64,000 nt of DNA from Pseudomonadota bacterium (GTDB taxonomy: Bacteria; Pseudomonadota; Alphaproteobacteria; Rhodobacterales; Rhodobacteraceae). Below are positions 17,729-45,069 of this stretch, piece by piece. The notes below the pieces were generated by a model. That model was not told the origin of the DNA and made no database searches. It was given only the letters and a program-made list of their open reading frames with translations. Made by a program: the position numbers and the translations under genes. The DNA is taken from the NCBI GenBank assembly GCA_039184865.1, contig JBCDAV010000014.1, positions 21,549-85,548 on the forward strand, read 5' to 3'. Numbering within the stretch: position 1 is the first letter of the stretch; every line of letters starts with the position of its first letter.

Positions 17729-18199
17729 CTACCAGTGCTCGGTCCCCGGCGCACCCTTGGGCGATCCTTCCAGGTTGGGCGTCCACCATCCGCCATAGAA
17801 GTCTCCGGCCTGCGGAATGACGGCGACGCCGGCAACACGGCACTTATCCATCAGCGCCGGGTAGATCGCGATCATGTCGACCAGATCGCGGAACCGCTTC
17901 GTGGGCGCCCGGTAGGTCCAGGCCGCGCGCGCTGCCGTCCGGCCGCCGGCGCGGATATCGAAATAGGTGGCGGCGCCCTTCCACTCGCAGAAGCTGCGGC
18001 CAGCGACCTCGATCAGGTCGGCGGTGACATCGGCGCGCGGCAGGTAGTAGGTCGGCGGGTGATGCGTCTCGAGCACGCGCAACGCGCCGGTCGTGTCGGC
18101 AACGCTCTGCCCTGCAAAGACGACCTCGATGCGCCACGGTGCCGGCTCCAGCGCCGGAGGCCGCGGATAGTCCTGAACGTTTTCGGTCGGCAGGGTCAT
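17729..18199 (-). CDS. DUF427 domain protein
   Basis: ENVQDYPRPP, VLETHHPPTYYLP, SFCEWKGAATY, GDFYGGW are hallmark DUF427 motifs. Confidence 0.88.
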   Translation of the reverse strand: MTLPTENVQDYPRPPALEPAPWRIEVVFAGQSVADTTGALRVLETHHPPTYYLPRADVTADLIEVAGRSFCEWKGAATYFDIRAGGRTAARAAWTYRAPTKRFRDLVDMIAIYPALMDKCRVAGVAVIPQAGDFYGGWWTPNLEGSPKGAPGTEHW

Positions 18200-18209
18200 C
18201 GATTGGCTC

Positions 18210-18599
18210 TCACAGAAAGCGCGCCAGCACGTAGGCTGCGGCGGCGATATGGATCAGCGTGACAACGACCGAGACCGTGTGCAGCACGGCGAAGCGTTTC
18301 TTCCGGCCCGTGTCCGTCGCGTCATTGATCGCGGGCATCAGCACCTGCCGCGTCGGCGCCGTGGTGAGCGCGACGAGGCCGAGCAGGATCGCGGCCGTCG
18401 GGTCGGTCCGGAGCAGCAGCAGGGCCGCGACCGCCGAGGCGGCCATGACGAAGACGTAGAAATGCGGGAAGGCGCGCCGGATGGTCGGGCCGGCAACATC
18501 GGCCGGAAGCGCCGAGAAGACGAAGGCTGCAAAGCCGAACGAATAGAGCACCATGCCGCCGAACAGCAGGGCGGTCATCAGAAGCGCTGCGGTTTCCAT
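18210..18599 (-). CDS. Small membrane protein (DUF4149/TMEM205-like)
   Basis: Four hydrophobic helices; IRRAFPHFY and KKRFAVLHTVSV motifs; start overlaps the upstream gene's 3' end. Confidence 0.75.
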   Translation of the reverse strand: METAALLMTALLFGGMVLYSFGFAAFVFSALPADVAGPTIRRAFPHFYVFVMAASAVAALLLLRTDPTAAILLGLVALTTAPTRQVLMPAINDATDTGRKKRFAVLHTVSVVVTLIHIAAAAYVLARFL

Positions 18600-19456
18600 T
18601 CCTTTTCCTCCGGTTTCTCACGCGCGAGCCCTGTGCGGGCGACTGCGCCACTTGCGAGCCGCGGCAGAACGTAGGGCACGTTCGCCCGATAACGATGGAA
18701 GCGGTCGCCGTAGCGCTTGGCGAACCGGCGTTCCTTCAGTCGCGGCGCGAACAGGCAGTAGGCAGTGAAGCTCAGCGCAAGGGCAAGCTGGTCCGGCGTC
18801 CAGACCGGCACTGTCCACAAGGTCAGCGCGAAGGCGACGTAAATCGGCTGGCGGATGACCCGGAACAGGCCCTGAGTCGGCATGTCGGGAAAGACCGGGC
18901 GGATCCGCGCCAGCAGCGACATCCATCCGAGCGCGCCGGACTGGACCTCGGCACCGGCATCGAAGCTCGCCTTGGCCAGCAGCAGCCACGCCGCAGCGTA
19001 GAGACCGCAGATCAGCCAGAAAAATGCGCCCTCCGCCTGCCACCAGATCACGCCGGACGGCGTCCAGAGCGTGAAGAGTGCGAGAAGTTGCAGCGAGGCG
19101 ATGATCGCGTAGGTCGTCGTGGCAAGCGTCCGGCCGTGCGGGCCGGGTATCAGGCGCGACAGCAGGCGCCCGCCGCGACCGGTCAAAAGCCACGAATGCG
19201 CGAGCGGGAACTGCGCGATCAGCAGGGCGTTTGCCAGCACCGCCCAGGGCCATGGCACAGAACCCAGCCCCTCGCTCATGCCGAAGAACATCGCGGCAAT
19301 CATCGACAGGACCGCGAGCGCGAAGACGATGTGGCAGACCAGACCCATCGTCACCGCAAGAGCGATCCGACCAGTTCCGCGCGGAGCGCTGAGCAGGCCG
19401 TGTGCGAGGGTGATCAGCCGCGCGATCCGCGGGTCGTCTGCAAAGCTCAGACGCAT
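18578..19456 (-). CDS. ICMT-family membrane methyltransferase, MddA (methanethiol S-methyltransferase)-like
   Basis: Multi-TM; GLFRVIRQPIYVAF equivalent to the RHPxY motif; KERRFAKRYGDRFHRYRANVP tail. Start taken at MRLSFADDP (19456), overlapping the photolyase stop. Confidence 0.75.
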   Translation of the reverse strand: MRLSFADDPRIARLITLAHGLLSAPRGTGRIALAVTMGLVCHIVFALAVLSMIAAMFFGMSEGLGSVPWPWAVLANALLIAQFPLAHSWLLTGRGGRLLSRLIPGPHGRTLATTTYAIIASLQLLALFTLWTPSGVIWWQAEGAFFWLICGLYAAAWLLLAKASFDAGAEVQSGALGWMSLLARIRPVFPDMPTQGLFRVIRQPIYVAFALTLWTVPVWTPDQLALALSFTAYCLFAPRLKERRFAKRYGDRFHRYRANVPYVLPRLASGAVARTGLAREKPEEKEWKPQRF

Positions 19457-20664
19457 TCGAGCTCGTTCAGGATCTTCGGGATCTGCTGTTTGACCTTGAA
19501 GAAACCTGCCGTCGCGTGGCGCCAGATCGCCGTGTCCCAGTCGCGGCGCCACTCGCACAATGCGATCCCGGCGCGGCTCAACTCAGGCTTTGCGCGCTTC
19601 AGCCAGTCGTGGAGCGGTCCTTGCGGAAAGTAAGCCGTCGCGATCTGCTGCACGCCCGCGCGCTTGGCCCAGGCGACCAGATCTTTCGGCGACCCGGCCG
19701 TCATCGATTGGGCCGTGAGACCGAGCCGTCCTGCGGCGTCGGCCAGCGCCTCGGCCTCGAAGGATTTGACGTGGTCCGCGACGGTCCGCTCGGAGCGCAG
19801 ATGGCTCGCCGCAAGCGTGGCTGAAGCCCGGATATCGAACTCCGATGGACGGAAGGCTTCGAGGTGCAGATCCTCCTCGGTGATCAGCAACGCTGTCGGC
19901 AAGGTCAGATCGGGCGCTTGGATCTCGCGCACCGGCAAGGTCGGCGGCAGACCGGAAGGCTCGCTCGCGTCGAGTGAGACAGCGTCCGAGGCAAAGTCGG
20001 AGTCCCGGGGCGTGAAGCGCTGGCTGGTGAATTTCGCGATGTTCCAGGCCTTGGCCTCGTAGATCTTGCCGCGCGTGTGCAGTCCCGCGACCCAGCGCCA
20101 ACCCAACGTGTTCGAGGCGGAATCGCCGTCGAGCAGGTGGCGATGGAAGAAATCGGCGCCAGTCCGCCACGGCAGGCCGAGCGTGAAGATCCAGATCGAG
20201 GCGAACCACATCCGGGCGTGATTGTGCAGGTACCCCGTGTCGACCAGCTCCGCGACCCATGCGTCGAAGCACTCCAGACCGGTGGCGCCGCTCTCGGCTA
20301 TGTCGACGCGCTTGCGCAGGCGCCGGTCGCTTTCAATCGCGGCGAGGTCGGAAGCGAGCCCGTCGCGGTAGCTCGTCCAGACTTCCGGGCGCCGTTCGAG
20401 CCATCCCTTGAAATAGCCGCGCCAGAAGACCTCCTGCACGAATTTTTCGGCGCCATCCAAGCCGTGATGTTCGACGGCGGCCGCCGTGACTTCTTCCTCG
20501 GTGACAAGGCGGCGGCGGATATGGGGCGAGAGTTGCGACACGGCCTTGTGGCGCCCGGGCCCGTGATCATAGTTCCGCCCGGACGCATAGCGCCGCCCCA
20601 TGCGCGGGGCGAATTCCTCGATCATCTCCAGCGCGTGCTGGCGGGTCGCCGGTGTGAAATCCAT
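19447..20664 (-). CDS. Domain-inverted DNA photolyase (NewPHL type; FAD-binding domain N-terminal)
   Basis: VSQLSPHI, EKFVQEVFWRGYFKGWLE, GYLHNHARMWFASIWIF, HLLDGDSASNTLGWRWVAG all lie in the N-terminal half, followed by a shortened alpha/beta domain; 405 aa. Confidence 0.88.
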   Translation of the reverse strand: MDFTPATRQHALEMIEEFAPRMGRRYASGRNYDHGPGRHKAVSQLSPHIRRRLVTEEEVTAAAVEHHGLDGAEKFVQEVFWRGYFKGWLERRPEVWTSYRDGLASDLAAIESDRRLRKRVDIAESGATGLECFDAWVAELVDTGYLHNHARMWFASIWIFTLGLPWRTGADFFHRHLLDGDSASNTLGWRWVAGLHTRGKIYEAKAWNIAKFTSQRFTPRDSDFASDAVSLDASEPSGLPPTLPVREIQAPDLTLPTALLITEEDLHLEAFRPSEFDIRASATLAASHLRSERTVADHVKSFEAEALADAAGRLGLTAQSMTAGSPKDLVAWAKRAGVQQIATAYFPQGPLHDWLKRAKPELSRAGIALCEWRRDWDTAIWRHATAGFFKVKQQIPKILNELECV

Positions 20665-28355: not shown

Positions 28356-30212
28356 GTGGCACAGGCGCTCGACATCGACCGAAACGACGGCACGCTCGCC
28401 GGGCGCGTGCGTACGCTGTTCTCGATCGACGTGAGATCGCTCGCCGCGATGCGCGTGCTGCTCGGCATCACCGTCGTCTACTGCCTGTTGATGATCTTCC
28501 CGGATCTGCGCTGGTTCTACACCGACCAGGGATTTCTCACGCGGGCCGAGGCGCTGTCCGACACGCCATACGCCAAGGCGTCGCTCCTGTTCTTCAACGG
28601 CAGCTACACCTTTGCGGTCGTGCTCTGGGTCCTCGCGCTGCTGGCGGCGGCGTCCTTCATGGTCGGGTTTCGAGCGCGGCTTTCCGCGCTGCTCTGCTGG
28701 ATCCTCTACATGTCGTTCGTCGGCCGCAATCCGCTGGTCGGACAGGGCGGCGATGCGCTGATCCTGCTGTTGCTGTTCTGGTCGATGTTCCTTCCGGTCG
28801 GCCGCGCATTCTCGATCGATGCGGCCTTGTCGGACAATCCGCGCCCGAGCGGAAAGGACAGAGAGGTCTGCTCGGTCGCGACCGTCGGCCTGCTCCTCCA
28901 GGTTCTCTACGTCTACGTCTTCGGCGCCCTCCTGAAGACCGGCCCGCAATGGATGCCGGACGGCAGCGCGGTCTACTTCGCGCTGCATCTCGACACCTTC
29001 GCGACCGAACTTTCGATGTGGTTCCGCCAGTTCTTCGCGCCGACCCAGATCCTGACCTACTTCGTCTTCTGGCTGGAACTGCTCGCCCCCGTCCTGCTGT
29101 TCTTCCCGGACAAGCGGATGCTGGTCCGCACGGCCACACTGGCCCTGCTGATTGCCATGCACCTGGGCTTCCGCGTCTTCATCCGCATCGGGCATTTCTG
29201 GATGGCGAGCCTGTCGTCGCTGTGCACATACATCCCGGGCTGGGTCTGGGACTGGATCGAGGCGCGGTACTGGACCGACGGTCAGCGCTCGATCGAGATC
29301 TACTACGACCGCGATTGCGGCTTCTGCCGGAAGGTCGCCCTGATCCTGCGGGAGTTCTTCCTGCCCATCAGCGTCCCGATCCGCCCGGCGCAGGATTTCG
29401 GCCCCATCGGTGAGGTGTTGGAGCGCGAGGTGAGCTGGGTCGTCATTGATCACACGGGCAAACAAAGGCTGCACTGGGATGCGGTCGCTTATGTGATGTG
29501 TCAGTCTTGGTGCCTGTTGCCGCTCGGCTGGATCGCCGTCGCGGTCGGCAAGATCGGCGTCGGGAAGTTCCTCTACGACAGGATCGGCGCGAACCGGAGA
29601 CCGCTTGGCAGGCTGACCGCGTGGCTGACCCCCGAGACGGGAATCGATGCCCGGCTGGGCGGCGTGACGCGGGCGGGCCTATGCGCCGTGATCGCGGTCT
29701 GCTTCATCTGGAACTTCGACATGATGTCGGGCCAGACCCGCGTCGAGGTTTTGAAGGGAAGCCCGCTCGAACGTCCGATGGCCTTTCTTGGTCTGACCCA
29801 GCGCTGGGGCATGTTCGCCCCGTTTCCTGCGACGGATGAGGGATACATCATCGCCGAAACGATGACCGAGAACGGCGATCATCTGGACGTCGCGCATCGT
29901 CAGCCGGTGCCTTATGTCGACGGTGCGCCGGAAAACCTTTTCTCGCACTTCTCGAATTATCGCTGGCGGCGCTACCAGAACCGCGTGATCCTTTTCGAGA
30001 ACAAGGAGCGGTTCAAGCAGCTATCGCGATTTGCCCGGGCCGCGTGCGCGCTCCACAACCGTGGGCGCGGCGAGGGCGAACGGATCGTGCAGATGTCGAT
30101 CCGCGCCCCGATGAAGCGCCAGTACCTCGACTTTCAGCAGGAGCACATCGTCGCCGACTTCGGCGCATGGAACTGCGTCTTCCCGAACACGGAAGCCCCG
30201 AGCACCGGATAA
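28356..30212 (+). CDS. HTTM-domain membrane protein with inserted DCC1-like thiol-disulfide domain
   Basis: FSIDVRSLAAMR, LFWSMFLP, LLKTGPQW and LGLTQRWGMFAP HTTM-family motifs; internal YYDRDCGFC (DxxCxxC) with SWVVID...HWDAV of the DCC/DUF393 type. Confidence 0.85.
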   Translation: MAQALDIDRNDGTLAGRVRTLFSIDVRSLAAMRVLLGITVVYCLLMIFPDLRWFYTDQGFLTRAEALSDTPYAKASLLFFNGSYTFAVVLWVLALLAAASFMVGFRARLSALLCWILYMSFVGRNPLVGQGGDALILLLLFWSMFLPVGRAFSIDAALSDNPRPSGKDREVCSVATVGLLLQVLYVYVFGALLKTGPQWMPDGSAVYFALHLDTFATELSMWFRQFFAPTQILTYFVFWLELLAPVLLFFPDKRMLVRTATLALLIAMHLGFRVFIRIGHFWMASLSSLCTYIPGWVWDWIEARYWTDGQRSIEIYYDRDCGFCRKVALILREFFLPISVPIRPAQDFGPIGEVLEREVSWVVIDHTGKQRLHWDAVAYVMCQSWCLLPLGWIAVAVGKIGVGKFLYDRIGANRRPLGRLTAWLTPETGIDARLGGVTRAGLCAVIAVCFIWNFDMMSGQTRVEVLKGSPLERPMAFLGLTQRWGMFAPFPATDEGYIIAETMTENGDHLDVAHRQPVPYVDGAPENLFSHFSNYRWRRYQNRVILFENKERFKQLSRFARAACALHNRGRGEGERIVQMSIRAPMKRQYLDFQQEHIVADFGAWNCVFPNTEAPSTG

Positions 30213-32130: not shown

Positions 32131-34008
32131 TCAGCGTAACACGAAATATGCCAGTGACACCCTGAGGTCACTTCCACTCAACGTCTTTGCCGCGCCCAGG
32201 TTGGCGAGAACCGACGCGGCGGGGCCGTCGAGCGCGAGCGTCCCCAGCGACGCAATGCTGTCCAGTGCCATCAGGATATGCGGCCCCGGCACGGTCGGGC
32301 GCAGAGCGGCCCGGACCTGCCCGTCCTGACGCGCCAGAGCCCTGGTGATATCGATAACATAGCCATTGGGATCGACCACCAGCAGCCAGGTTTGACGGTC
32401 GGGCCGGTCCGACATCACGATCCGCGCTGTCTCACCCGCGGACAGTGTCCTGTCGGGATCGTCGACACCGATTTCCCGCGCGCCGCGTCCCGGAAACAGC
32501 CGCGCGAACGACAGTGCCGCACATTGCGGCGGCGTGATCATCCGGCCGCCGACATTCGCCTCGATGCCGACCGATGCCTTGAACGCGCCATCGAAATCGT
32601 AGAACGGCGCGGTATCGTCCGAGAAAGCCTCGATATCTATGCGCTCGGCCGACACCTGCGACGGCTGCGCGAGAAAGCACTCCTCACCGACGAAATCCGT
32701 GAGAAAGTCGCGGACCTGATGATCGAGGGATCGCTCGGCCGAGGCCGCTGTCCCTGCCCCGCCTTGCGCGTTGAGCGCGACAACCGGCAGAAACACGCGT
32801 TGCCGTTCGCGCTCGGAACCGCGCCGCTCCGCCACGATATCGAATTCGAAGTCGCCCTGTTCGGTCGGCGTTCCGGACAGAAGACCGTTGCCGTTTCCCC
32901 GATCGACAAAGCGCAGCCCGGCTGGCAGCAGTCCGGCGATCTTGAGACCTACGGCCTGTTTCTGCGCTGCATTCAGATCGACCGTCGGTCGCCAGAAATA
33001 CGCGGTGCCGACGAACCCGTCATGGGCGCGCTGTATCCCGCCCGGAAAGATCGGCAGCCGCGCCTCTGGCTCCGGCTCGACCCCAGCGACGTCGAAGGTT
33101 TCGGCACCCTCGTCTGAAAGCACCGCGCCGCAGACCTTCGGCAGATCGTCCATCGTGAGCACACGCTTAGCAGATCGGGCCTGCTGGTTGCCCGTGGGTT
33201 GCTGAGCTTCCTCCCAGCGGCGCGTCAGACCGATCGACCGCGATTTCTGTCCGCGCGGAAACCACTTCGACAATTCGGCACCGCACCCCGTGCCGGAGGG
33301 GGGCGGTGCCTGATCGCGGCATCCGGGAGAACCCGCTGGACACGCGAGACGGACATGAAAGTGAGCATTGTGCCCATGCCAAGGGCGCACCTTGCGCAAC
33401 CACGGCGCCTCTATGCGCCCGTTGCGAGCTTTCTCCTCCCGACACATCGCCCGTTTGATCGCGGCGTTGACGAAGATCCGTGCGACGGCAGAGTCCTCGG
33501 CGGCGGCACGGATGACCTCGTGATGCGACTGGGTCCAGTACCGGTTCATCGATATGCCGTCCTTGGCGACAACGACGTGACTGCCGATGCGCTCGCGATC
33601 CTTGCGGCTCAGCTTTTCGATGCTTGGCTGTCGCAACCAGATATCGACGTCCAGACCGATCTGATGCGAGCGGTGACCGGATTTCATCGGCCCGCCGCGC
33701 GGTTGCCCGATATCGCCCACATAAAGGCGCGGCCAGCCGATCTGTTGCGCCTTCACCGAAAGCCGCTCGATGAAGGCAATCATCTCCGGATGGCCCCAGT
33801 TGCGGTTGCGGCTGAGCCGCATCGCCTGCCATCCGCTGGCTGTCTCGCGCAGTTGCATCCCGCCGGACAGGCAGCCCCGCGCATAGCTGCCGAAGGCCGC
33901 CGGTGCCGCTGCGCTGGGTGCCTTGTGCCGGCCAAACAGCGTGTGCGCGGGTTCGGCGAAGGCAGATGTCGCGATCAATGCGGCAATTGCGGCGGTGGTC
34001 CAATTCAT
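32131..34008 (-). CDS. mepA: Penicillin-insensitive murein endopeptidase MepA fused to an Ig-like domain and an uncharacterised C-terminal domain
   Basis: Signal peptide; GSYARGCLSGG, RNRNWGHP, GHRSHQIGLDVDIW and HNAHFHVRLAC give intact LAS Zn ligands; then LPAGLRF...LLSGTPTEQGDFEFDI (Ig) and about 200 further residues. Confidence 0.88.
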   Translation of the reverse strand: MNWTTAAIAALIATSAFAEPAHTLFGRHKAPSAAAPAAFGSYARGCLSGGMQLRETASGWQAMRLSRNRNWGHPEMIAFIERLSVKAQQIGWPRLYVGDIGQPRGGPMKSGHRSHQIGLDVDIWLRQPSIEKLSRKDRERIGSHVVVAKDGISMNRYWTQSHHEVIRAAAEDSAVARIFVNAAIKRAMCREEKARNGRIEAPWLRKVRPWHGHNAHFHVRLACPAGSPGCRDQAPPPSGTGCGAELSKWFPRGQKSRSIGLTRRWEEAQQPTGNQQARSAKRVLTMDDLPKVCGAVLSDEGAETFDVAGVEPEPEARLPIFPGGIQRAHDGFVGTAYFWRPTVDLNAAQKQAVGLKIAGLLPAGLRFVDRGNGNGLLSGTPTEQGDFEFDIVAERRGSERERQRVFLPVVALNAQGGAGTAASAERSLDHQVRDFLTDFVGEECFLAQPSQVSAERIDIEAFSDDTAPFYDFDGAFKASVGIEANVGGRMITPPQCAALSFARLFPGRGAREIGVDDPDRTLSAGETARIVMSDRPDRQTWLLVVDPNGYVIDITRALARQDGQVRAALRPTVPGPHILMALDSIASLGTLALDGPAASVLANLGAAKTLSGSDLRVSLAYFVLR

Positions 34009-34126
34009 CCGTGAATTCGTGCTGCTCTATCTGTGGGCGAATCTTACCCGAGCACCGGATGGCGTGCTAGTATCTGGGCGATCGTACCGCGTCGGGCGAG
34101 CGTGAACCCCGATTGGAGCCTGCACC

Positions 34127-34687
34127 ATGCCAAGAGCAATCATCGCCGGTCTGTTCGTCATGCTCGCGACCGCCTCAACCGACGCGCAGCAATCGAACTA
34201 TTCGGCGGAGGACATTGTCGAACACTTCCGGAACCAGGCGGGTTCCTCCGGCACCGCCCAGCAGACCCGAGGCGTCGTTATCGGTGCTGCGGGTTTCGGG
34301 AACAGCACGCAGTCCTCGGCGGGGACTGCTGCGACCGAGGCGCCGCCCGACCCCGGCGCCTACAACCTGATGGTCACGTTCGAGCTCAATTCGGACCGCC
34401 TGACACCGATTGCGCGCAGCAATCTCGACGAGTTTGCCAAGGCGCTGAGGGCTCCGGACCTCGCCTCGCTGCGTTTCGCGGTGGACGGGCACACGGACTC
34501 GAGCGGGTCGGACACCTACAATTTCGGTCTCAGCGCCCGCAGAGCAGATGCGGTCGTGCGGTATCTGACGCGCAACGGGATCGACGGCAGCCGGCTCGAG
34601 GCACGCGGGTTTGGCGAAACGCGGCCGGTCAATGCAGACCCCCGCCATCCGAGCAACAGACGGGTCGAGACGCGGCTGATCAGATAG
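34127..34687 (+). CDS. Secreted OmpA-like peptidoglycan-binding domain protein
   Basis: Signal peptide; VTFELNSDRLT, DGHTDSSGSDTYNFGLSARRA, NRRVE. Confidence 0.92.
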   Translation: MPRAIIAGLFVMLATASTDAQQSNYSAEDIVEHFRNQAGSSGTAQQTRGVVIGAAGFGNSTQSSAGTAATEAPPDPGAYNLMVTFELNSDRLTPIARSNLDEFAKALRAPDLASLRFAVDGHTDSSGSDTYNFGLSARRADAVVRYLTRNGIDGSRLEARGFGETRPVNADPRHPSNRRVETRLIR

Positions 34688-34888
34688 ACGTTTCCGCGCC
34701 GGTTCGCCAAGGTCGGGGCAATCGAGGCAACGGGGGCAGGTGTCGATGCCGCAGTGCGAAGAAATTTGTGCACTGCATTGACGCGGCGGGGAATCGCTGC
34801 GTAGGGTTTTTACCAACAAGACAAAAAATCGAGCAGGCGACGAGACCGCAGTGTCTGAATGGCACCGCGTTGCGGGGGAGAATGACCG

Positions 34889-36508
34889 TTGACCTGGTTC
34901 GTCACACTCGTTGTGATCCTGATCGCAGCGATCCTGCTCATCCTGTTTCTGAACCGATACTATCGCAAGGCCACGCGCGAGGTCGCGCTGGTCCGGACGG
35001 GCTCCGGCGGGCAACTCGTGGTGCTCGATGGCGGCTGCATCGCGGTGCCGTTCCTCCACAAGGTCTCCGAGATCAACATGCGCACGACCAAGCTCGAGAT
35101 CGAGCGCGTCGGGCCGAAATCGGTGATCACGAAGGACCGCTTGCGGGTCGATGTCGGCGCAGAGTTCTATGTCCGCGTCGAGGCCACGGATGACGGTGTC
35201 GCAACTGCGGCGCAGGCGCTGGCCGGCAAGACGTTTCGGGCATCCGAACTCGCCGACACGCTGGAAGGCAAGCTGGTCGATGCGGTGCTCTCGGTTGCCG
35301 CCGGCTACACGATGGACACCCTGCAGGACGAGCGTGGAAAGTACACGGCCGCCGTCGCGAACGAACTGAAAGACGATCTCGCGCAGAACGGTCTCGTCCT
35401 CGAAAGCGTCTCTTTGACCCGCCTCGACCAGACCCCGTTCCAGGCGCTGGATGAGAACAACGCCTTCAACGCGCTTGGTATGCGGCGCCTCGCCGAGATC
35501 ATCGCGACGAACAAGAAGGAACGCGCGGAGATCGAGGCCGACGCCGAGGTTTCCGTGCGCCAATCTGAATTGGACGCGACCAAACGGAAACTGGTGATCA
35601 GCCAGGAGGAGGAGGAAGCGGTCATCGCCCAACAGCGCGAGATCGAAACCTCGCGCGCCAAGAGCCAGGCCGACATCGCCGAGGAACAGGCGACCTCCGA
35701 GAAACGCCGGGAAGCCGCACGCATCGAGCGCGAGCGCGAGACCCGGATGTCCGAGATCGAAAAGGACCGGGCGCTGCGAAAACAGCAGCTTGAGGCCGAA
35801 CTGGCCACGGAAAGCGCAAAGTCAGAGAACGTGGTCAAGCTCGCCGCGAAACGGATCGAGCAGGCCGTCGCCGAAGCCGAGGCGCAGCGCGCGCGAACGC
35901 AGGAGGTCGAGGCGGAAACGCAGGTCGAGACGACCCGTCAGACCGCAGAGGCCGAGCGCGCGAAAGAGATCGCCCTGATCCGCGCGCGCGAACAGGCCGA
36001 GGTCGACGATACCCGCGTGGCATCCGAGGCCGGAACGATCGTCTCGATGGCCGAAGCGCAGGCCAAGGCGACGCTGGAGCAGGCCGAGGCGGCAAAGAAT
36101 GAACTGCTGTCGCGCGCCGAGGGCACCGCCGCGCTGATCGCTGCCGAGAACGCGCAATCGGCCGAGCTGATGAAGCTCAAGCTCGATCAGGATCGCCTGC
36201 GCACCTTGCCGGGCGTCGTCGAACGGCTGATGAAGCCCGCCGAGAAGATCGAGACGATCCGGATCAACCAGATCTCCGGTCTTGGAAATTCCGGTGGCAC
36301 CGCTGGCGAAAGCGGCGACAAATCCGCGATCAATCAGGCGGTCGACGGCGTGCTGAACATGGCGCTGCAGCTTCCGGCCGTGAAGAAGCTCGGCGAGGAG
36401 GTCGGCCTGAATGTCGGCGGCGGCCTCGACGGCATCACGAAATCGCTGACGGACGCCCCGGAGACGGGCGACGGCGCACCGAACAAGGACACGTCGCAGG
36501 ATACGTGA
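34889..36508 (+). CDS. Flotillin family (SPFH/band 7) protein
   Basis: N-terminal TM, SPFH domain (ITKDRLRVDVGAEFYVRV; LESVSLTRLDQT), FNALGMRRL, long AEA-rich coiled coil, EKIETIRI tail; TTG start 8 nt after GGGGAG. Confidence 0.93.
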   Translation: MTWFVTLVVILIAAILLILFLNRYYRKATREVALVRTGSGGQLVVLDGGCIAVPFLHKVSEINMRTTKLEIERVGPKSVITKDRLRVDVGAEFYVRVEATDDGVATAAQALAGKTFRASELADTLEGKLVDAVLSVAAGYTMDTLQDERGKYTAAVANELKDDLAQNGLVLESVSLTRLDQTPFQALDENNAFNALGMRRLAEIIATNKKERAEIEADAEVSVRQSELDATKRKLVISQEEEEAVIAQQREIETSRAKSQADIAEEQATSEKRREAARIERERETRMSEIEKDRALRKQQLEAELATESAKSENVVKLAAKRIEQAVAEAEAQRARTQEVEAETQVETTRQTAEAERAKEIALIRAREQAEVDDTRVASEAGTIVSMAEAQAKATLEQAEAAKNELLSRAEGTAALIAAENAQSAELMKLKLDQDRLRTLPGVVERLMKPAEKIETIRINQISGLGNSGGTAGESGDKSAINQAVDGVLNMALQLPAVKKLGEEVGLNVGGGLDGITKSLTDAPETGDGAPNKDTSQDT

Positions 36509-36539
36509 CGGTCAACGATCGACAGACAGGAGAGAACTC

Positions 36540-37787
36540 ATGGTGACCACCCGCAGACGCTTCCTTGCCGGATCCTCGGCCCTCGCGCTGGCAGCACCGG
36601 CCCTGACGGGTCGCGCGCTGGCCGATGACATCACCTTCGTCTCGATCCTCGACCAGTCGGGCGGGCTCGACATCTATGGCAAGCCGATGGTCGACGCGAC
36701 GCGCATGGCGATTGACGAGATCAACAAGGCCGGCGGCCTCAACGGCGCCATGGTCGACCTGAAGGTCTACGATCCGCAGTCGACCATCCAGTTCTACACG
36801 CAGTTCGCGACCCAGGCCGCCGCCGGCGACCGCGCAAACGTCGTCCATGCCGGGATCACTTCGGCCTCGCGCGAGGCGATCCGGCCGACCTTCGCGCGCT
36901 TCCAGACGCTCTATTTCTACAACACGCTCTACGAAGGCGGCGTCTGCGACATGAACAATTTCTGCACCGGTTCGACGCCGGCGCAGACCGTCGAGAAGCT
37001 GGTCCCCTACACGATGAACAAGTGGGGCAAGAAGGTCTACATCATCGCGGCCGACTACAATTACGGCCAGATCACCGCGCAGTGGGTCCAGAAATACGTG
37101 CGCGACAATGGCGGCGAGCCGGTGGCGACCGAATTCTTCCCGCTCGACGTCACGAACTTCGGCCCGACGATCAAGAAGATCCAGGCGGCCAAGCCCGACA
37201 TGGTGATGTCGGCACTGGTCGGCGGCGCCCATGTCAGCTTCTACCGCCAGTACGCGGCGGCGGGGATGAACAAGTCGATCCCGATCGCCTCGACGACGTT
37301 CGGCGTCGGCAACGAGCACAAGCTGATCAGCGCCGAGGAAGGCGACGGCATGATCTGCGCCTACTCCTATTTCGAGGAGATCGAGAGCGCGGCCAACGCG
37401 GACTTCGTCGGCCGCTTCAAGGCGTTCGTCGGCGACGGCGCGCCCGCGCTCAACGAGCTTGCGGCACGATCGTACGAAGGCGCGATGCTCTGGGCAGAAG
37501 CCGTGAAGGCGGCCGGGACCGCCGACCGGATGCCGGTGATCGAGGCACTTCGCGGCGGGCTGTCCTATGCCGGACCGTCGGGACCGGTGACGATCGAGCC
37601 CAAGACCAACCACGCGCTGCAGAACGTCTATCTCGCCGAGTTGAAGGACCAGAGCTTCGACATCCTCGAGACCTACGAGTCGCAGCCGCCGACCGACACG
37701 CTGCTGGTGTGCGATCTCGTCGCCGACCCGAGCCAGTCGACCTTCAAGTTCGAGAACGGTCTGGAAGCGGCAGGGATCAAGCTCTGA
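36540..37787 (+). CDS. Urea/short-chain amide ABC transporter substrate-binding protein (UrtA/AmiC-like)
   Basis: Tat signal TRRRFL; SASREAIRP, YFYNTLYEGG, IAADYNYGQ motifs. Confidence 0.9.
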   Translation: MVTTRRRFLAGSSALALAAPALTGRALADDITFVSILDQSGGLDIYGKPMVDATRMAIDEINKAGGLNGAMVDLKVYDPQSTIQFYTQFATQAAAGDRANVVHAGITSASREAIRPTFARFQTLYFYNTLYEGGVCDMNNFCTGSTPAQTVEKLVPYTMNKWGKKVYIIAADYNYGQITAQWVQKYVRDNGGEPVATEFFPLDVTNFGPTIKKIQAAKPDMVMSALVGGAHVSFYRQYAAAGMNKSIPIASTTFGVGNEHKLISAEEGDGMICAYSYFEEIESAANADFVGRFKAFVGDGAPALNELAARSYEGAMLWAEAVKAAGTADRMPVIEALRGGLSYAGPSGPVTIEPKTNHALQNVYLAELKDQSFDILETYESQPPTDTLLVCDLVADPSQSTFKFENGLEAAGIKL

Positions 37788-37834
37788 GGTACCCGTAGGA
37801 TGGGTGAAAACCCATCCTGCATCCGGGAACGCAG

Positions 37835-38704
37835 ATGGACCTCGTAATCGCCCTTGGCCTGCAGATCCTCTACGGGATCGCCAACCTCGCGCTGATCAGC
37901 CTGGGGCTGGCGATCATTTTCGGGATGATGCGGGTCATCAACCTCGCCCACGGCGAGTTTCTGATGCTCGGCGGGTATACGGTCGTGGTTGCGACCAACA
38001 ACGGCGTGAACATCTGGATCGCCATGCTGGTGCTCGCCCCGCTGGTCGTCGGCGTGATCGGCGTGATCGTCGAGCGTTTGCTGATCCGATGGCTCTACGG
38101 ACGCATGGTCGACACGTTGCTCGCCACCTGGGGGCTTTCGCTGCTCTTCATCGGGCTGGTGACCACGATCTTCGGGGCATCGACGGCCACGACAATCTCC
38201 CCGCCCCTCGGCGTGATCGAGATCGGTGATTACTCGTCATCGGGCTATGAGCTGTTCCTGATCATCGTGACGGTCGTGCTGCTCCTCGCGGTCTGGGCTA
38301 CTCTGAAGCTGACACGGCTCGGTCTCGTCGCACGCGGCACCATGCAGAACGCCGAAATGGCCTCGGCGCTCGGCGTCTCGACCAACCAGACGTACATGAT
38401 CACGTTCGGCCTCGGCGCGGCGGTCTCCGGGCTTGCGGGCGGGCTGCTGGCACCGATCACCGGCGTTCTGCCGACCATCGGGGCGATCTACATCGCCAAG
38501 GCGTTCATCACCGTCATCTCCGGCGGCATGGCCATCCTCGCCGGGACGACCTCGGCCTCGGTGCTGCTCGGCGGCGTCAACGGCATCACCGCCTTCCTGA
38601 CGGGACCGACCATGGGCGAGGTCGCCCTGCTTCTGGTCGCGATCATCCTGTTGCGCCTGATGCCACGCGGGATCACCGGCACCTGGTTCAGGAAAAGCCT
38701 GTGA
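37835..38704 (+). CDS. Branched-chain/urea ABC transporter permease (UrtB/LivH-like)
   Basis: GLAIIFGMMRVINLAHGEF motif, multi-TM. Confidence 0.93.
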   Translation: MDLVIALGLQILYGIANLALISLGLAIIFGMMRVINLAHGEFLMLGGYTVVVATNNGVNIWIAMLVLAPLVVGVIGVIVERLLIRWLYGRMVDTLLATWGLSLLFIGLVTTIFGASTATTISPPLGVIEIGDYSSSGYELFLIIVTVVLLLAVWATLKLTRLGLVARGTMQNAEMASALGVSTNQTYMITFGLGAAVSGLAGGLLAPITGVLPTIGAIYIAKAFITVISGGMAILAGTTSASVLLGGVNGITAFLTGPTMGEVALLLVAIILLRLMPRGITGTWFRKSL

Positions 38705-39759
38705 GCGTCGACCGGGAGTTTCGTGGAACGCTGATCATCGCGGTCTTGGCCGTGATTTTCACGCTGGCCGCCCCTTCGGTGTTCGAGCTCTTCACGATCA
38801 TCAACCTCACGACGGCGATCGCGCTTGCGATGCTCGCGCTCAGCCTCGCGCTGGTCTGGGGATACGGCGGCATCCTGTGCTTCGGGCAGACCGCGTTTTT
38901 CGGGATCGGCGCCTACGCCTACACGATCGCCGCGATCAATTTCGGAGGATCGACCGGCGCGATCCTCGTGGCGATCCTCGTGGCCGCCGCCGCCGCCGCG
39001 ATCCTCGGCTATGTCGTGTTCTATGGCCGCGTGTCGGATGTCTACCTCGCCGTCATCACGCTCACGGTCGCGCTGATCCTCTACAGCCTGATCCGGCGCA
39101 CCTCGGGTCCCGAATACAAGATCGGCAACGCGCTGCTTGGCGGGTTCAACGGCGTGACCTCGCCACCGATCAACGTGCCCTGGGCGCCCTACTCGATGCT
39201 GTTTCCCGAGCATCTGTTCTACGTCGCCATGGTCGCCCTGATCCTGGCGTACATCTTTTGCGGCTGGCTGGTTCGGACCCATTTCGGCCGGGTCTGCATC
39301 TCGATCCGCGAGAACGAACTGCGCGCCGAGCTGATCGGTTACGACACGCGCCTCTACAAGCTCGGCATCTTCACCATCGGTGCCGCGATCGCGGGACTGG
39401 CCGGGGTGCTGTTCTCCAATGGGATCGGCCGGGTCACGCCGGATGTCTTCAACCTCTACAACTCCGCGCTCACGATCATCTGGGTCATCGTCGGGGGGCG
39501 GGGCACCTTGATCGGACCGATCCTCGGCGCCTTCGGGCTGTTTTATCTGACAGCGTCGCTCGGCTCGCAGTCGGTCCTGAACAACAACCTGGTGCTGGGC
39601 GTCATCCTGATCGTCTTCGTCCTCGGGGTCCCGAAGGGCGTCGTGCCGACCGTCACCGACTGGCTCTCGTCGCGGCGCAGGCTCAAGGCATCGCGCGCAC
39701 GCGAGCGGCGGATGCGCCTGCGCAGGTCGCGCGCCGGAACCGTGGAGCCGGCCGAATGA
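38701..39759 (+). CDS. Branched-chain/urea ABC transporter permease (UrtC/LivM-like)
   Basis: WGYGGILCFGQTAFFGIGAY, IRENELRAELIGY, GGRGTLIGP; GTGA overlap with the upstream stop. Confidence 0.93.
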   Translation: MSVDREFRGTLIIAVLAVIFTLAAPSVFELFTIINLTTAIALAMLALSLALVWGYGGILCFGQTAFFGIGAYAYTIAAINFGGSTGAILVAILVAAAAAAILGYVVFYGRVSDVYLAVITLTVALILYSLIRRTSGPEYKIGNALLGGFNGVTSPPINVPWAPYSMLFPEHLFYVAMVALILAYIFCGWLVRTHFGRVCISIRENELRAELIGYDTRLYKLGIFTIGAAIAGLAGVLFSNGIGRVTPDVFNLYNSALTIIWVIVGGRGTLIGPILGAFGLFYLTASLGSQSVLNNNLVLGVILIVFVLGVPKGVVPTVTDWLSSRRRLKASRARERRMRLRRSRAGTVEPAE

Positions 39760-40478
39760 AGCGGGGCGAGGTGGTGCTCGAGACACGCGGACTGTCGATG
39801 TATTTCGGCGGCGTGAAGGCCGTCGACCGCGTCGACTTCTCGCTCTGGGCCAACGAGTTGCGCTGCCTGATCGGGCCGAACGGGGCCGGAAAATCGACCT
39901 TCTTCAAGTGCCTGACGGGGCAGCTTTTGCCGACGGCGGGCGACGTGGTCATCCGGGATGTGCACGTCGCGGGACGCGAGCCGCACGAAATCTCGGCCCT
40001 CGGCGTCGGCATCAAGACCCAGGTTCCGAATGTCTTCAACGGCCTCAGCGTCGAGGAGAACGTCTGGCTCTCGGCCCGGCGCTGGCACGGCAACGCGCGG
40101 GCGCGCGCTCTGACCGGCGAAACCCTCGAACGCCTGCAACTGACCGAGATCCGCAGCAACTCCGTCGATGCGCTGTCGCATGGCCAGCGCCAGTGGGTCG
40201 AACTCGGCATGGTCGTCGCCGCGGAACCGTGGCTGGTTCTGCTCGACGAGCCGGCTGCCGGAATGACCCATGAGGAGACCCAGCGCACGGCGGATCTGAT
40301 CCGCGAAATCAACAAGACAGCGACCCTGATCGTCGTCGAGCACGACATGCAGTTCATCCGGATGATCTCGAAGACCGTGACCCTGTTCCATGAAGGCCGC
40401 ATCCTGATGGAAGACACGATGGAGGCGATCTCAGCCGATCCGAAGGCGCGGGAAGTCTACCTGGGAACGCGGGCATGA
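39756..40478 (+). CDS. ABC transporter ATP-binding protein (UrtD/LivG-like)
   Basis: [32 protein letters not shown] 39756 overlaps the upstream stop; the track ORF from 38877 is an over-extension. Confidence 0.93.
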
Positions 40479-42829
40479 GCGCACTGCTGGAAGTTCGCGG
40501 GCTGACCTCCGGCTACGGCCGCGTCCCGGTGCTGCACGGGATCGACTTCTCGGTGCAGGACGGCGAGATCATCGGCATTCTCGGCCACAACGGCATGGGC
40601 AAGACGACGCTCCTGAAGACGGTCATGGGCCTCGTTCCGGCAACCGGCGGCGTGATGACCTTTGCCGGGCTCGACCTCGCGGGCGAACGGACCTCCGAGC
40701 GCGCCAAGCTCGGCATCGGCTATGTCCCGCAGGGCCGCGGCATTTTTCCGAACCTCAGTGTTTTCGATAACATCCGCATGGGGATCGCGGCCCACGAGGC
40801 CGACGAAGAGGACGCCGTCCGCCGCATTCTGCAGGAGTTTCCACGGCTTGAGCGCCTGCTCGAGCGCGAGGGCGGGGCGCTCTCGGGCGGCGAGCAGCAG
40901 CTTCTGGCGATTGCCCGCGCGCTGATCTCGGAACCGGAACTGATCCTGCTCGACGAGCCGACGGAAGGCATTCAGCCGAGCATCATCGACGAGATCATCG
41001 ACCTGCTGAAAGACCTCAATCGCAAACGCGGTCTGACCATCGTTCTGGTGGAGCAGAACCTCGACTTCATCCACGAGCTTTCGGACCGCGTGCTCCTGCT
41101 GCAGAAGGGCGTGATCGAGGGCGAGATGTCCGGCTCGGATGCAGCCGACCCCGCCCTGATCGACGAATTCACCGGCTTCGGCGGCGGCAATGGCGCGCGT
41201 CCCGCGCAGATCTCGAAACCCAAACCGAAAGACGAGCCACGGCCCGACCCGGTCACCAGACCGGCCCCGGACCGCGCTCCGCCCGACACTTCGCTCAATG
41301 GAAGGATCAGCTACATGACGGCACAGCGACCGACCCTTGCGCAACTGAAGGACATCACGCTCGAACTGGGCATGAGCCTGTCCGAGACCCGTATCCGCGA
41401 GTTCCACGAGGTCATGCAGGGCACGCTCGACGCCTACGACATCGTCGACGCCCTGCCCGACTACCTGCCGCCCGTCCTCTATCCCAGAACCGCCGGCCAT
41501 CGCCCGTCCGAGGAGGAAAACCCGCTCAACGCCTGGTACGTGAAGACCGAGATCAGGGGCGCACCGCGCGGCAAACTGCACGGCAAGACCGTCGCCCTGA
41601 AAGACAATGTCTGCCTCGCGGGCGTGCCGATGATGAACGGCGCCTCGACGCTCAAGGGCTATACGCCGGACGTCGATGCAACAATCGTGACCCGGCTTCT
41701 GGATGCCGGCGCGACGATCACCGGCAAGGCCCATTGCGAGTATTTCTGCCTCTCCGGCGGCTCTCATACCAATGCGACCGGCCCGGTCCACAACCCGCAC
41801 AAGCACGGCTTTGCGGCGGGCGGGTCGTCCTCCGGTTCCGGCGCGCTGGTCGGCGGCGGCGTCGTCGACATGGCGATTGGTGGCGACCAGGGCGGGTCGA
41901 TCCGCATGCCCGCCTCGTTCTGCGGCTGCTACGGTATGAAACCGACGCACGGGCTGGTGCCTTATACCGGCGTCATGCCGATCGAGGCGACCATCGATCA
42001 CACCGGGCCGATGACCCAGACGGTCATGGACAACGCGCTGATGCTCGAGGTCCTTGCCGGACCGGACGGCCTGGACCCCCGCCAATACGACGTTGTTACC
42101 GATAACTATTCGGCTGCCGTGACCCGCGGTGTCTCCGGGTTGCGGATCGGCGTGGTCAAGGAGGGCTTCGACCGCGCGGAGTCCGAGTCCGATGTCGATG
42201 CCAAGAACCGTGCCGCAGCCGAGATGTTCCGCCAGATGGGGGCGACCGTCGACGAGATCTCGATCCCGTGGCACCTGAAAGGCCCCGCGATCTGGACGCC
42301 GATTGCAGTCGAAGGCCTGACCAACCAGATGATGCACGGCAACGGCATGGGCACCGGCTGGGGGGGCATGTACACGACCTCGCTGCTCGATTTCCACGCG
42401 AACTGGCGTCAGCGCGCAGACGAACTCAGCGACACGCTCAAGATCTGCATGTTCATCGGCCAGTACTATCTTAAGCACCACCGCGGCCACTACTATTCGA
42501 AGTCGCAGAACCTCGCCCGGCAGCTTCGCGAGGAATACAACAAGGTGCTGGCGTCATACGACCTGCTGCTGATGCCGACGACGCCGATGAAAGCCCAGCC
42601 GATCCCGCCCGCGGACGCGCCGCTCGAGCTCTGGTGCCAGCGCGCCTTCGAGATGCTGAACAACACCGCGCCCTTCGACGTGACCGGGCATCCTGCCATG
42701 GCGCTTCCCTGCGGAATGTCGGACGGGCTGCCGGTCAGCGTGATGCTGGTGGGACGGCGCTACGAGGAGAGCACGATCTACCGCGCTGCCGGGGCGTTCG
42801 AGGCCGCAGGCGACTGGCGTAAGATGTGA
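40475..42829 (+). CDS. Fusion: ABC ATP-binding domain (UrtE/LivF-like) plus amidase-signature family amidase
   Basis: Residues 1-~235: [24 protein letters not shown]. Pro-rich linker. From Met281 (nt 41315): [25 protein letters not shown] (Ser-cisSer-Lys triad) and CEYFC (CX3C). No stop in between. Confidence 0.9.
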
Positions 42830-42844
42830 GACCGGGGCAACCCA

Positions 42845-42872
42845 ACCGGGCGCGCACTCGGACGCGCCCGGT
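42845..42872. terminator. GC-rich hairpin between convergent genes
   Basis: ACCGGGCGCG-(8 nt)-CGCGCCCGGT perfect 10-bp stem, 15 nt after the amidase stop; no U-tract. Confidence 0.55.
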
Positions 42873-42880
42873 GCGCCCCC

Positions 42881-43162
42881 TCAGGCGACCTCTTTGCCTC
42901 TGACAGATGCAGAGGTATCTGCTTGCTCGAGATAACGCAGAGCCTGCGCCACTGCGGCTTTCGGGTTGAAGACAGCCGTCACCACGTTCTGGACGACGCA
43001 TATCCACGGCAATCCGTTGCGCCGTGCGACGGCGCGCGCCTCGCCCAGCGCTTCGTGGATCTCCGCTGCGTGCCGACGGGCATATGTCTCGATGGTGTCA
43101 ATCCGGACCAGAAGAACCTTCAGGCTCTGGCGAATGGTCTCGGCGTAGTTTGCATCCGGCAT
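42881..43162 (-). CDS. Small hypothetical helical protein (93 aa)
   Basis: AGGGGA RBS 6-7 nt upstream; amphipathic helical composition; fills an otherwise empty gap. Confidence 0.5.
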   Translation of the reverse strand: MPDANYAETIRQSLKVLLVRIDTIETYARRHAAEIHEALGEARAVARRNGLPWICVVQNVVTAVFNPKAAVAQALRYLEQADTSASVRGKEVA

Positions 43163-43430
43163 GGCGGTTCCCCTGATCGATGAAACCCAAATTAACCTGA
43201 CGAATCAAAGCGGTCTGTACCGGATGATACACCTGAGGTTGCGCGGAACGTCATGGCGACGCCTTGGCCCCGCCAGCGGTCTGGCAAGGCTCAGCTTGCA
43301 ACGCCCCAACGCATCGGAACGCCGGCCGATCCCGCGCGATAGAAATGTGTATGATCGGGGTCCGTTCCGTTTGACCGCAACCACCCGGCAGGCTAGGTCT
43401 CCCCCCCGATAACAGGACCGGAGAACGCGC

Positions 43431-43997
43431 ATGTTCAGATCATTGATCCTCGCAATCACGCTCATGTTCTCCCTGACGCCGGAGGCACAGGCAGTGGACG
43501 AGAAATACCTGCTCATCGAGCTGGAAAACGGAACGGTGAAGATCGAGATGCTGGCCGATGTGGCACCGAAACACGTCGCGCAGATCACCGCGCTCGCCAA
43601 GCGCGGCGAATACGACGGCGTCGCGTTCCACCGCGTCATCGACGGGTTCATGGCGCAGACGGGCGATGTCGAGCACGGCAAGGTCGCCGATGACGGCTCG
43701 GTATCCACGCGTGCCGGGACAGGTGGCTCGGACCTCGGCAATATCGAGGCAGAATTCTCGAGCCTGCCATTCGATCGCGGCGTGGTCGGCATGGCGCGGG
43801 CGCAATCGCCCAATTCGGCCAACTCGCAGTTCTTCATCATGTTCGAGGACGGCCACTTCCTGAACAACAACTACACGGTCTGGGGCCGCGTTGTCGAAGG
43901 CATGGAACTGGTCGACAACATCAAGCGCGGGGCCGGTGGCAGCGGCGCCGTGACCGACCCGGACAAGATGGTCAAGGTCACCGTCTCGGCGGACTGA
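43431..43997 (+). CDS. Cyclophilin-type peptidyl-prolyl cis-trans isomerase, exported
   Basis: FHRVIDGFMAQTGD, GMARAQSPNSANSQFFI, YTVWGRVVEGM; N-terminal signal peptide. Confidence 0.96.
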   Translation: MFRSLILAITLMFSLTPEAQAVDEKYLLIELENGTVKIEMLADVAPKHVAQITALAKRGEYDGVAFHRVIDGFMAQTGDVEHGKVADDGSVSTRAGTGGSDLGNIEAEFSSLPFDRGVVGMARAQSPNSANSQFFIMFEDGHFLNNNYTVWGRVVEGMELVDNIKRGAGGSGAVTDPDKMVKVTVSAD

Positions 43998-44088: not shown

Positions 44089-45069
44089 ATGCGGATCACA
44101 GCGCTTCTCATCGCTCTTCTGGCGGCAGGACCGCTTCTGGCCGCCGAAGTGCCGGACCACTGGAAGCGTGCCTGGCCGAAGACGGACTTCAGCAAGATCT
44201 CGGTCGACCCGTCCGAGGTCTTCTCCGGCGGCCCGCCGAAAGACGGTATCCCGGCGATCACCGGCCCGACGATGATCCCGGTGGCGTCCGAGACGGAACT
44301 TGACCCGCGCGAGCCGGTCATGAGCGTCGAGGCCGAGGGCATGCCCGCGCGGGCCTACCCCATTCGCTATCTGATGTGGCATGAGATCGTGAATGACCGC
44401 ATCCGGGACGTGCCGATCGCGGTCACCTTCTGCCCGCTCTGCAATTCCGGGCTGGTGTTCGATCTCAGGATCCCGTCGATCGAGGGCCACATCGAGGTGG
44501 AACTGGGCGTGTCCGGGCTGCTGCGCCATTCGGACATGATCATGTACGACCGGCAGACCGAAAGCTGGTGGCAGCAGTTCACGGGCGAGGCGATCGCGGG
44601 CTTCATGACGGGTGCAAAGCTGGTGCCGCTGCCCGCACTGCTCGAGAGCTGGGACGCTTTCCGCACGGCCAATCCGAACGGGGTCGTGATGGCGGAGCCC
44701 GAGGAACATTCCCGGCGATACGGCTCCAACCCCTACAGCGGATATGACAGCGGCGTGCCGTTTCTCTACCGCGGCGAAAATCCCCCGCACGGCATCAATC
44801 CGCTCGTGCGTGTCGTGCGGGTCGGCGACCGGGCATGGCCCCTGCCCCGGCTGATCGAGTCTCCCGTCATCGAGGAGGCCGGTGTCCGCATCTCGTGGCA
44901 GGAGGGCCAGGCGTCCGCGCTCGACACCGGGGAGATTGCAAAGGGCCGCGAGGTCGGCAACATCCGCGTAACCGATGCTGCCAGCGGGGAACTGGTCGTG
45001 CACGAGATCGTCTTCGCCTTCGCGTTTCACGCCTTCACACCGGACGGAGAGTGGATGCTCGGCAACTGA
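44089..45069 (+). CDS. DUF3179 domain exported protein
   Basis: SGGPPKDGIPAI, RAYPIRYLMWHEIVND, TFCPLCNSG, SGLLRHSDMIMYDRQTESWWQQ. Confidence 0.88.
   Translation: MRITALLIALLAAGPLLAAEVPDHWKRAWPKTDFSKISVDPSEVFSGGPPKDGIPAITGPTMIPVASETELDPREPVMSVEAEGMPARAYPIRYLMWHEIVNDRIRDVPIAVTFCPLCNSGLVFDLRIPSIEGHIEVELGVSGLLRHSDMIMYDRQTESWWQQFTGEAIAGFMTGAKLVPLPALLESWDAFRTANPNGVVMAEPEEHSRRYGSNPYSGYDSGVPFLYRGENPPHGINPLVRVVRVGDRAWPLPRLIESPVIEEAGVRISWQEGQASALDTGEIAKGREVGNIRVTDAASGELVVHEIVFAFAFHAFTPDGEWMLGN

Follow-up and report, generated by a model that had tools for sequence, protein, structure and literature searches.

The effect of bacterial flotillins on their clients is disputed, in part since the clients of the model flotillins are numerous and loosely defined and deletion of these flotillins gives mild phenotypes. 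Described here is a flotillin gene that stands directly in front of the genes for an ATP-binding cassette (ABC) importer and an amidase, in a 64,000 nt stretch of DNA derived from a marine metagenome (GenBank assembly GCA_039184865.1, contig JBCDAV010000014.1, positions 21,549 to 85,548 of the forward strand; Rhodobacteraceae), hereafter called the window. The cluster is best viewed as an amide importer that comes with a flotillin and a tethered amidase, built from known parts, and offers a rare case of a flotillin lineage tied genetically to a single defined machine, namely an importer with an enzyme-fused ATPase.

The nearest precedent for a flotillin fixed beside one client is the FArhodopsin cluster of the marine bacteria SAR11, HIMB59 and Pseudothioglobus, where a flotillin is conserved next to, and co-transcribed with, one membrane protein (PMC10308929); the client there is a rhodopsin paralogue in a cluster of ~26 kb, and not an ABC importer-amidase. 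HflK/C with FtsH is similar in being an SPFH assembly dedicated genetically and physically to a single membrane client (PMC12048511), but HflK/C is a periplasm-facing heteromer around a protease, whereas the window cluster has one flotillin, of predicted cytoplasmic orientation, that accompanies an enzyme-bearing nutrient importer. The YqiK/FloT-type flotillins (36–47% identity) have the same membrane anchor, SPFH domain, long helix and Flot domain. They are encoded with a YqiJ/OB-fold gene upstream and no transporter, whereas the window lineage lacks this partner and is fixed beside an ABC importer.

Among transporters, UrtABCDE has the same five-component layout as the window importer, but the linked enzyme here is an amidase-signature amidase and not a urease or urea carboxylase. 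The unfused amide ABC-amidase clusters (those of Aureimonas, Tistrella, Pleomorphomonas, Shinella, Thioclava and Paracoccus methylovorus were compared) have homologous binding protein, permeases, ATPases and amidase (46–64% identity) and carry AmiC-like, MarR or ANTAR regulators; they differ in having separate ATPase and amidase genes and in lacking both a flotillin and a directly downstream acyl-CoA ligase. The amidase of Rhodococcus sp. N-771 (3A1K/3A1I) shares with the fusion's amidase a unique N-terminal helical domain and the Ser-cisSer-Lys motifs, but is a free cytoplasmic dimer encoded in a nitrile hydratase cluster, whereas the window amidase is tethered to an ABC ATPase. The amiEBCRS genes of Pseudomonas aeruginosa encode the nitrilase-superfamily amidase AmiE under AmiC/AmiR regulation. 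The window amidase is of the amidase-signature type, and there is no AmiC-like, MarR or ANTAR regulator gene in the window; some relatives carry them. Literature searches that combined flotillin or SPFH with amidase, urea, ABC transporter, operon, Roseobacter or Sulfitobacter found no account of the cluster, and a survey from 2026 on the genes around SPFH genes in Pseudomonas is silent on it. The suggestion that the system is undescribed, made in a preliminary description of the window from its sequence alone, is supported by these searches.

A survey of gene neighborhoods, proposed there as a check, was strongly positive. Seventeen flotillin homologues were aligned and one genome was scanned per species, giving 80 loci (48–90% identity) in which neighboring genes were scored by tblastn with the window's proteins. 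The binding-protein gene adjoins the flotillin gene on the same strand in all 74 loci that have at least 1.5 kb of downstream DNA, with a spacer of ~57 bp (median, 78 relatives), and the whole gene set is present in 62 of the 63 loci with at least 6.7 kb, the exception (L005) having a degraded amidase. The ATPase-amidase fusion is a single open reading frame (ORF) in 64 of 65 scorable loci. The 80 loci come from Alphaproteobacteria (Paracoccaceae, other Rhodobacterales, Rhizobiaceae, Hyphomicrobiales, Geminicoccales, Minwuia), Gammaproteobacteria (Immundisolibacterales, Arenicellales, Acidiferrobacteraceae) and Burkholderiales (Limnohabitans, Comamonadaceae). The closest relatives of the window are two metagenome-assembled genomes (MAGs), one of Pseudomonadota (L001, 90%) and one of Thermohalobaculum (L002, 88% identity). 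In L002 the upstream genes encode a tripartite ATP-independent periplasmic (TRAP) transporter and an amidohydrolase, not MepA and OmpA as in the window, and since flanking genes are not conserved, the conserved unit is the cluster itself. In four MAG loci (L005, L043, L045 and L050) a gene for the binding protein, an ATPase or the amidase is degraded or frameshifted, or the flotillin reading frame continues into the gene that follows it; such damage may reflect assembly errors or decaying copies.

A reverse survey was seeded with the fusion protein, independently of flotillin, and covered plasmids, long ENA contigs and a metagenome scan. In total, flotillin is present in 37 of 37 fused clusters and in none of the 20 unfused clusters, in which the ATPase and amidase are separate genes. 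On plasmids, the three fused clusters (Sulfitobacter sp. THAF37, S. alexandrii and Pseudosulfitobacter pseudonitzschiae) all have a gene annotated as 'flotillin domain-containing protein' immediately 5' of the binding-protein gene, and eight unfused clusters (Aureimonas, Tistrella, Pleomorphomonas, Thioclava, Paracoccus methylovorus, Shinella, Bradyrhizobium CB82 and Rhizobium NIBRBAC) have no flotillin. Both long ENA contigs found via exact homologues of the fusion carry a Band_7 plus Flot gene. The metagenome scan with the fusion alignment (80 loci) returned 32 fused clusters with flotillin and none without, 12 unfused without flotillin and none with it, and five that were too short to score. 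The amidases of the flotillin-free unfused clusters are only ~51–79% identical to the queries used, and these sister clusters serve as a natural control. With 74/74 flotillin-seeded and 37/37 fusion-seeded fused loci, the adjacency of flotillin and ABC genes is far beyond chance, and the linkage across three proteobacterial classes, together with the exact co-occurrence with the fusion, upholds the proposal that flotillin and ABC-amidase genes belong together. The gene content, the domain identities, the conservation and this exclusive co-occurrence are direct observations. In ~22 loci the flotillin gene is preceded by an AmiC-like gene, in many cases together with a divergently oriented MarR gene, and in unfused clusters the AmiC-like gene directly abuts the binding-protein gene; a pair that is adjacent in one type is thus split by flotillin in the other, placing the flotillin gene inside the cluster and not at its edge. 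The unfused clusters of Tistrella (L085:16639-18401) and Rhizobium (L092:14278-16058) lie a few kb from the nitrile hydratase genes nthBA, which ties this transporter family to nitrile as well as amide catabolism.

The lack of an NfeD/YqiJ partner beside the flotillin, as first described, was confirmed: its neighbors are an OmpA-family protein upstream and the binding protein downstream. Four outgroup flotillins (36–47% identity), on plasmids of Phaeobacter, Shinella, E. coli and Bosea, are each immediately preceded by a YqiJ/OB-fold gene (4/4 cases) and lack a transporter. When these four partner proteins were used as tblastn queries they detected one another, and gave no match at E ≤ 0.01 in the 64-kb window or in L001–L080, L082, L084 and L091, and none at E ≤ 1e-8 in L098–L177. 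In a neighbor-joining (NJ) tree, all ABC-linked flotillins, including the long-branched ones of Sulfitobacter plasmids (37–39% identity), form one clade apart from the YqiJ-linked flotillins, and this grouping led to the rejection of an independent, double recruitment of flotillin. The fused amidases likewise form one clade, sister to an unfused group, and a library clustered at 50% identity holds one full-length fused representative among the best 150 matches, so the fused family is compact. The trees suggest that flotillin and fusion arose once.

The features of the cluster in the window are as follows.
34762–34839, plus strand: conserved non-coding block 5' of the flotillin gene, with TTGACG at 34778–34783; putative promoter/operator and start of the 5' untranslated region.
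34889–36508, plus strand: flotillin gene, 539 aa, TTG start, Pfam Band_7 and Flot.
36509–36539, plus strand: spacer between flotillin and binding protein, 31 bp, with GGAGAG as ribosome-binding site.
36540–37787, plus strand: periplasmic substrate-binding protein of the urea/short-amide-binding family with a twin-arginine (Tat)-type RRRF signal, Peripla_BP_5/6.
37835–38704, plus strand: permease 1, UrtB-like, BPD_transp_2, preceded by a 47-bp gap.
38701–39759, plus strand: permease 2, UrtC-like, BPD_transp_2, 4-bp overlap at 38701.
39756–40478, plus strand: ATPase 1, UrtD-like, ABC_tran, its ATG at 39756 overlapping the preceding stop codon.
40475–42829, plus strand: ATPase 2-amidase fusion of 784 residues, ABC_tran and Amidase in a single ORF; UrtE-like ATPase at residues 1–~222, Pro-rich linker at ~225–285, amidase-signature amidase at 281–783.
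42845–42872, plus strand: GC-rich hairpin closing the cluster, 10-bp GC stem, no U-tract.

Much of this layout had been given in the preliminary description, and its account of a 31-bp gap between the flotillin stop and the binding-protein start, of other gaps of 47 bp or 4-bp overlaps, of a hairpin at 42845 and of a fusion in the last gene agrees with the ORFs, the sequence, folding and the domain matches. A terminator-like site was not found on the plus strand of the flotillin/binding-protein spacer. The 4-bp overlaps at 38701, 39756 and 40475 are of the ATGA/GTGA type, and the hairpin has a folding energy of -34 kcal/mol (61-nt stretch folded, z = -3.0). The TTG start of the flotillin gene is preceded by GGGGGAGAA, and is supported by the M-x-W-F sequence that it gives the protein, which is the invariant N-terminus of the homologues.

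The flotillin scores 68.6 bits with Band_7 (cut-off 23.6) and 103.3 bits with Flot (cut-off 27), and only 38.3 bits with the FloT equivalog NF058507 of NCBIfam, against a cut-off of 700. More than 100 homologues share 69–91% identity with it. ABC-linked members are 531–547 aa long versus 564–571 aa for the YqiJ-linked ones. Residues 4–22 are hydrophobic and are followed by RYYRK, so that by the positive-inside rule the body of the protein is predicted to be cytoplasmic, on the same side as the ATPase-amidase. An AlphaFold2 (AF2) model, used solely for gross architecture as its confidence is low, has a helix at 2–31, an SPFH-like domain at 33–205 and a helix at 212–420, with the Flot domain following this ~200-residue helix; the predicted local distance difference test score (pLDDT) is 76–92 in the helices and 60 overall, from a shallow alignment. 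The best Foldseek matches of the monomer model are weak and are to flotillin, prohibitin and stomatin complexes (E ~1e-3 for the flotillin complexes 9L3G and 9BQ2), and a sequence search of the PDB with the flotillin gave no match.

The amidase domain scores 802.9 bits with NCBIfam PRK07235 (cut-off 545), and the Lys, cis-Ser and Ser catalytic motifs of the amidase signature, including GGSIR, are intact. Among solved structures its closest relative is the amidase of Rhodococcus N-771 (PDB 3A1K, E = 6e-144, residues 15–497), a 107-kDa dimer (PMC11732141), and as the match begins at residue 15 it spans the unusual N-terminal helical domain. In 126 fused proteins the linker between ATPase and amidase has 49–140 residues (median 73), is rich in Ala, Pro, Ser and Gly and unconserved, and looks like a flexible tether. 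PDB relatives of the binding protein are 8TG1, the urea-binding 7S6E/8HIC and AmiC (1PEA). For the transporter parts, the Urt equivalogs are the best-scoring NCBIfam models, yet all fall below their curated cut-offs: 332.6 versus 494.8 for the binding protein, 210.7 versus 250.3 (UrtB) and 243.4 versus 374 (archaeal UrtB) for permease 1, 183.6 versus 296.2 for UrtC, 244.9 versus 304.1 for UrtD and 264.1 versus 285.8 for UrtE. Given these scores, the N-771-type amidase and the AmiC-like, ANTAR and nitrile-hydratase genes that neighbor the unfused relatives, the substrate is more likely to be a carboxamide than urea. Of the urea/amide substrate originally proposed, an amide is thus the more likely part and urea appears unlikely.

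Most fused clusters have an acyl-CoA (coenzyme A) ligase gene right after the amidase as the typical seventh gene. The ligase scores 801 bits with PRK12583, a fatty-acid-CoA-ligase family (just under the cut-off of 832), and its position next to the amidase suggests that the acid product is probably activated to a CoA thioester. A ligase gene directly after the amidase is never seen in unfused clusters, and is also absent in the window, L097 and L128. The typical cluster therefore has one gene more than that of the window. In L002 the ligase gene lies at 17988–19667, for comparison with 42830–43430 in the window, where the GC hairpin is followed by a convergent 93-aa ORF (42881–43162, minus strand) without a family match.

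These proteins probably make up an amide uptake-and-hydrolysis module with a dedicated flotillin, likely an SPFH scaffold or cage that gathers or encloses transporter-amidase complexes. The Tat-exported binding protein would capture a small or medium carboxamide in the periplasm, the two permeases and two ATPases would import it, and the amidase, on a ~60-residue tether of ATPase 2, would cleave it at the cytoplasmic mouth of the transporter into carboxylate and ammonia; in most relatives the acyl-CoA ligase encoded next would then activate the acid. On the inner face of the membrane, the flotillin would act as an oligomeric SPFH scaffold or cage around several such complexes. Known structures of SPFH assemblies show closed or nautilus-like cages that cover a client or a patch of membrane (10.1101/2024.05.09.593390; PMC12048511). 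Caging would allow the tethered amidases of neighboring transporters to pair, as expected if they dimerize like their closest solved relative, and hydrolysis would stay coupled to import. Substrate class, topology, physical association and clustering are all matters that we infer. In a bolder version, which is doubtful, a closed SPFH dome over importers and tethered amidases forms a membrane-attached nanocompartment in which a membrane-permeant amide is hydrolyzed before it can escape; if true, this would explain why the amidase was fused to the ATPase at the evolutionary point at which flotillin was recruited.

Several points weigh against a flotillin scaffold for the importer. An interaction between flotillin and transporter is proposed from gene linkage, and with the single origin suggested by the trees, the perfect two-by-two table of fusion and flotillin would amount statistically to one event followed by retention, and not to many independent events. 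Few residues separate ABC-linked from YqiJ-linked flotillins (seven are clade-specific, none obviously informative), and AF2 models the flotillin poorly. Even so, the retention carries information: the flotillin ORF has remained intact down to 37% identity, through three classes and changes of flanking genes, in chromosomal as well as plasmid-borne clusters.

The remaining point against it comes from RNA. The window sequence is contained in DNA metagenome runs only and in no RNA run, and contigs from marine metatranscriptomes were mapped on two homologous clusters, L098 and L028. In L098, the flotillin stop codon is at 4223–4225 and the binding-protein ATG at 4272, and contigs on the binding-protein side start at 4221, 4224, 4227, 4228 and ~4234 in five runs, in which the last 170 nt of the flotillin gene are uncovered. 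The body of this gene is covered at lower depth. A contig that continues across the flotillin stop (3828–4260) comes from one library whose type is uncertain ('RNA?'). In L028, with the flotillin stop at 11633–11635, the single contig (11611–11909) has adapter sequence on its 5' side, so fragment ends were piled up 24 nt before the stop. In six runs, then, binding-protein contigs start at most ~25 nt from the flotillin stop and are deeper than flotillin contigs. This suggests an RNA 5' end at the gene boundary, produced by an internal promoter or by processing in the A-rich tail codons of flotillin, and the ABC genes may have a promoter or processing site of their own. Both the flotillin and binding-protein genes are expressed in these two clusters, and a separate 5' end leaves their functional linkage unweakened. 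The earlier label of flotillin as the first gene of an operon should be held loosely, given this likely 5' end and the AmiC-like gene that precedes flotillin in ~22 relatives.

Other roles for the flotillin were considered. It may be co-regulated with the importer yet act on the membrane, buffering fluidity or stress caused by lipophilic amides or released fatty acids. The fatty-acid-CoA-ligase family of the gene that follows the amidase in most relatives would fit such a role, as would the finding that some flotillins without ABC linkage sit with PspA stress genes, but it leaves unexplained why flotillin tracks the covalent fusion and is missing from all 20 unfused clusters, and the binding protein belongs to a small-ligand urea/amide family; this explanation is unlikely. 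Equally improbable is that the flotillin is an assembly or quality-control factor (compare HflK/C with FtsH, or the FloA holdase) that stabilizes the bulky fused subunit or controls its turnover. SPFH proteins commonly partner FtsH or stabilize unfolded proteins (PMC12048511, PMC13086221), and the long disordered linker of the fusion may be protease-sensitive. However, the loci whose genes were inspected one by one (the flanks in the window, the upstream side of L002, 11 annotated plasmid loci, L096 and L097; the 160 scan loci were not screened) have no linked gene for FtsH or a protease, and it is precisely the NfeD partner, which has been proposed to assist in such functions, that is absent. 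That the flotillin is an unrelated passenger, fixed once as a neighbor and carried along with a mobile cluster, would agree with the single origin suggested by the trees and the RNA hints of a separate 5' end for the ABC genes, but is very improbable, as its ORF is intact in every scorable locus of both surveys despite identity down to 37% and turnover of flanking genes, and as it lies inside the cluster, behind the AmiC-like gene in ~22 loci and with a short median spacer to the binding-protein gene.

The cluster is widespread in marine, freshwater and soil Proteobacteria, and this distribution points to an unrecognized route for the scavenging of organic amides. Several cultured marine strains carry the cluster, and the function of the flotillin is testable in them by growth on amides, uptake, amidase activity and localization. 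Among the cultured carriers are Sulfitobacter sp. THAF37, S. alexandrii AM1-D1, Pseudosulfitobacter pseudonitzschiae SMR1, Sulfitobacter sediminilitoris, Marimonas arenosa KCTC 52189 and Lutimaribacter saemankumensis DSM 28010.

The non-coding block upstream of flotillin (78 nt) is nearly identical in the window, L001 and L002, even though the upstream gene is different in L002, and many relatives have TTGAC-N17-TAnnnT-like sites ~100–130 nt 5' of the flotillin start. A scan for consensus sigma-70 sites found none anywhere in 34000–43500, and is hence uninformative on an internal promoter, and an Rfam scan of 34600–36700 gave no riboswitch or leader at E ≤ 1. Two candidate signals were rejected: a sigma-54-like TGGCAC-N4-TTGC at 34860–34873 is wrongly spaced, not conserved in L002 and only ~15 nt away from the start codon, and a terminator-like hairpin at 34781–34802, considered as an operon boundary, is inside the conserved promoter-like block, between the -35-like TTGACG and a T-run. 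In L002 (9830–9960) two copies of TTTGTGCA(C/G)TGC, spaced by ~40 nt, form a possible binding site for a regulator. The Sulfitobacter-type plasmids (L082:3314-3445, L084 and L091) carry an AT-rich inverted repeat, ATTTCCA...TGGAAAT, around TTGAAATGGAAAT, located between the AmiC-like and flotillin genes, just 5' of flotillin and beside the divergent MarR gene; it is probably a MarR operator.

Beyond the OmpA-family gene, the window encodes a MepA-like murein endopeptidase of 625 aa (32131–34008, minus strand), in which the Peptidase_M74 match is limited to residues 39–297 and the ~330 C-terminal residues have no family assignment. More distant flanking genes encode an HTTM-domain protein (28356–30212) and a DUF3179 protein (44089–45069).

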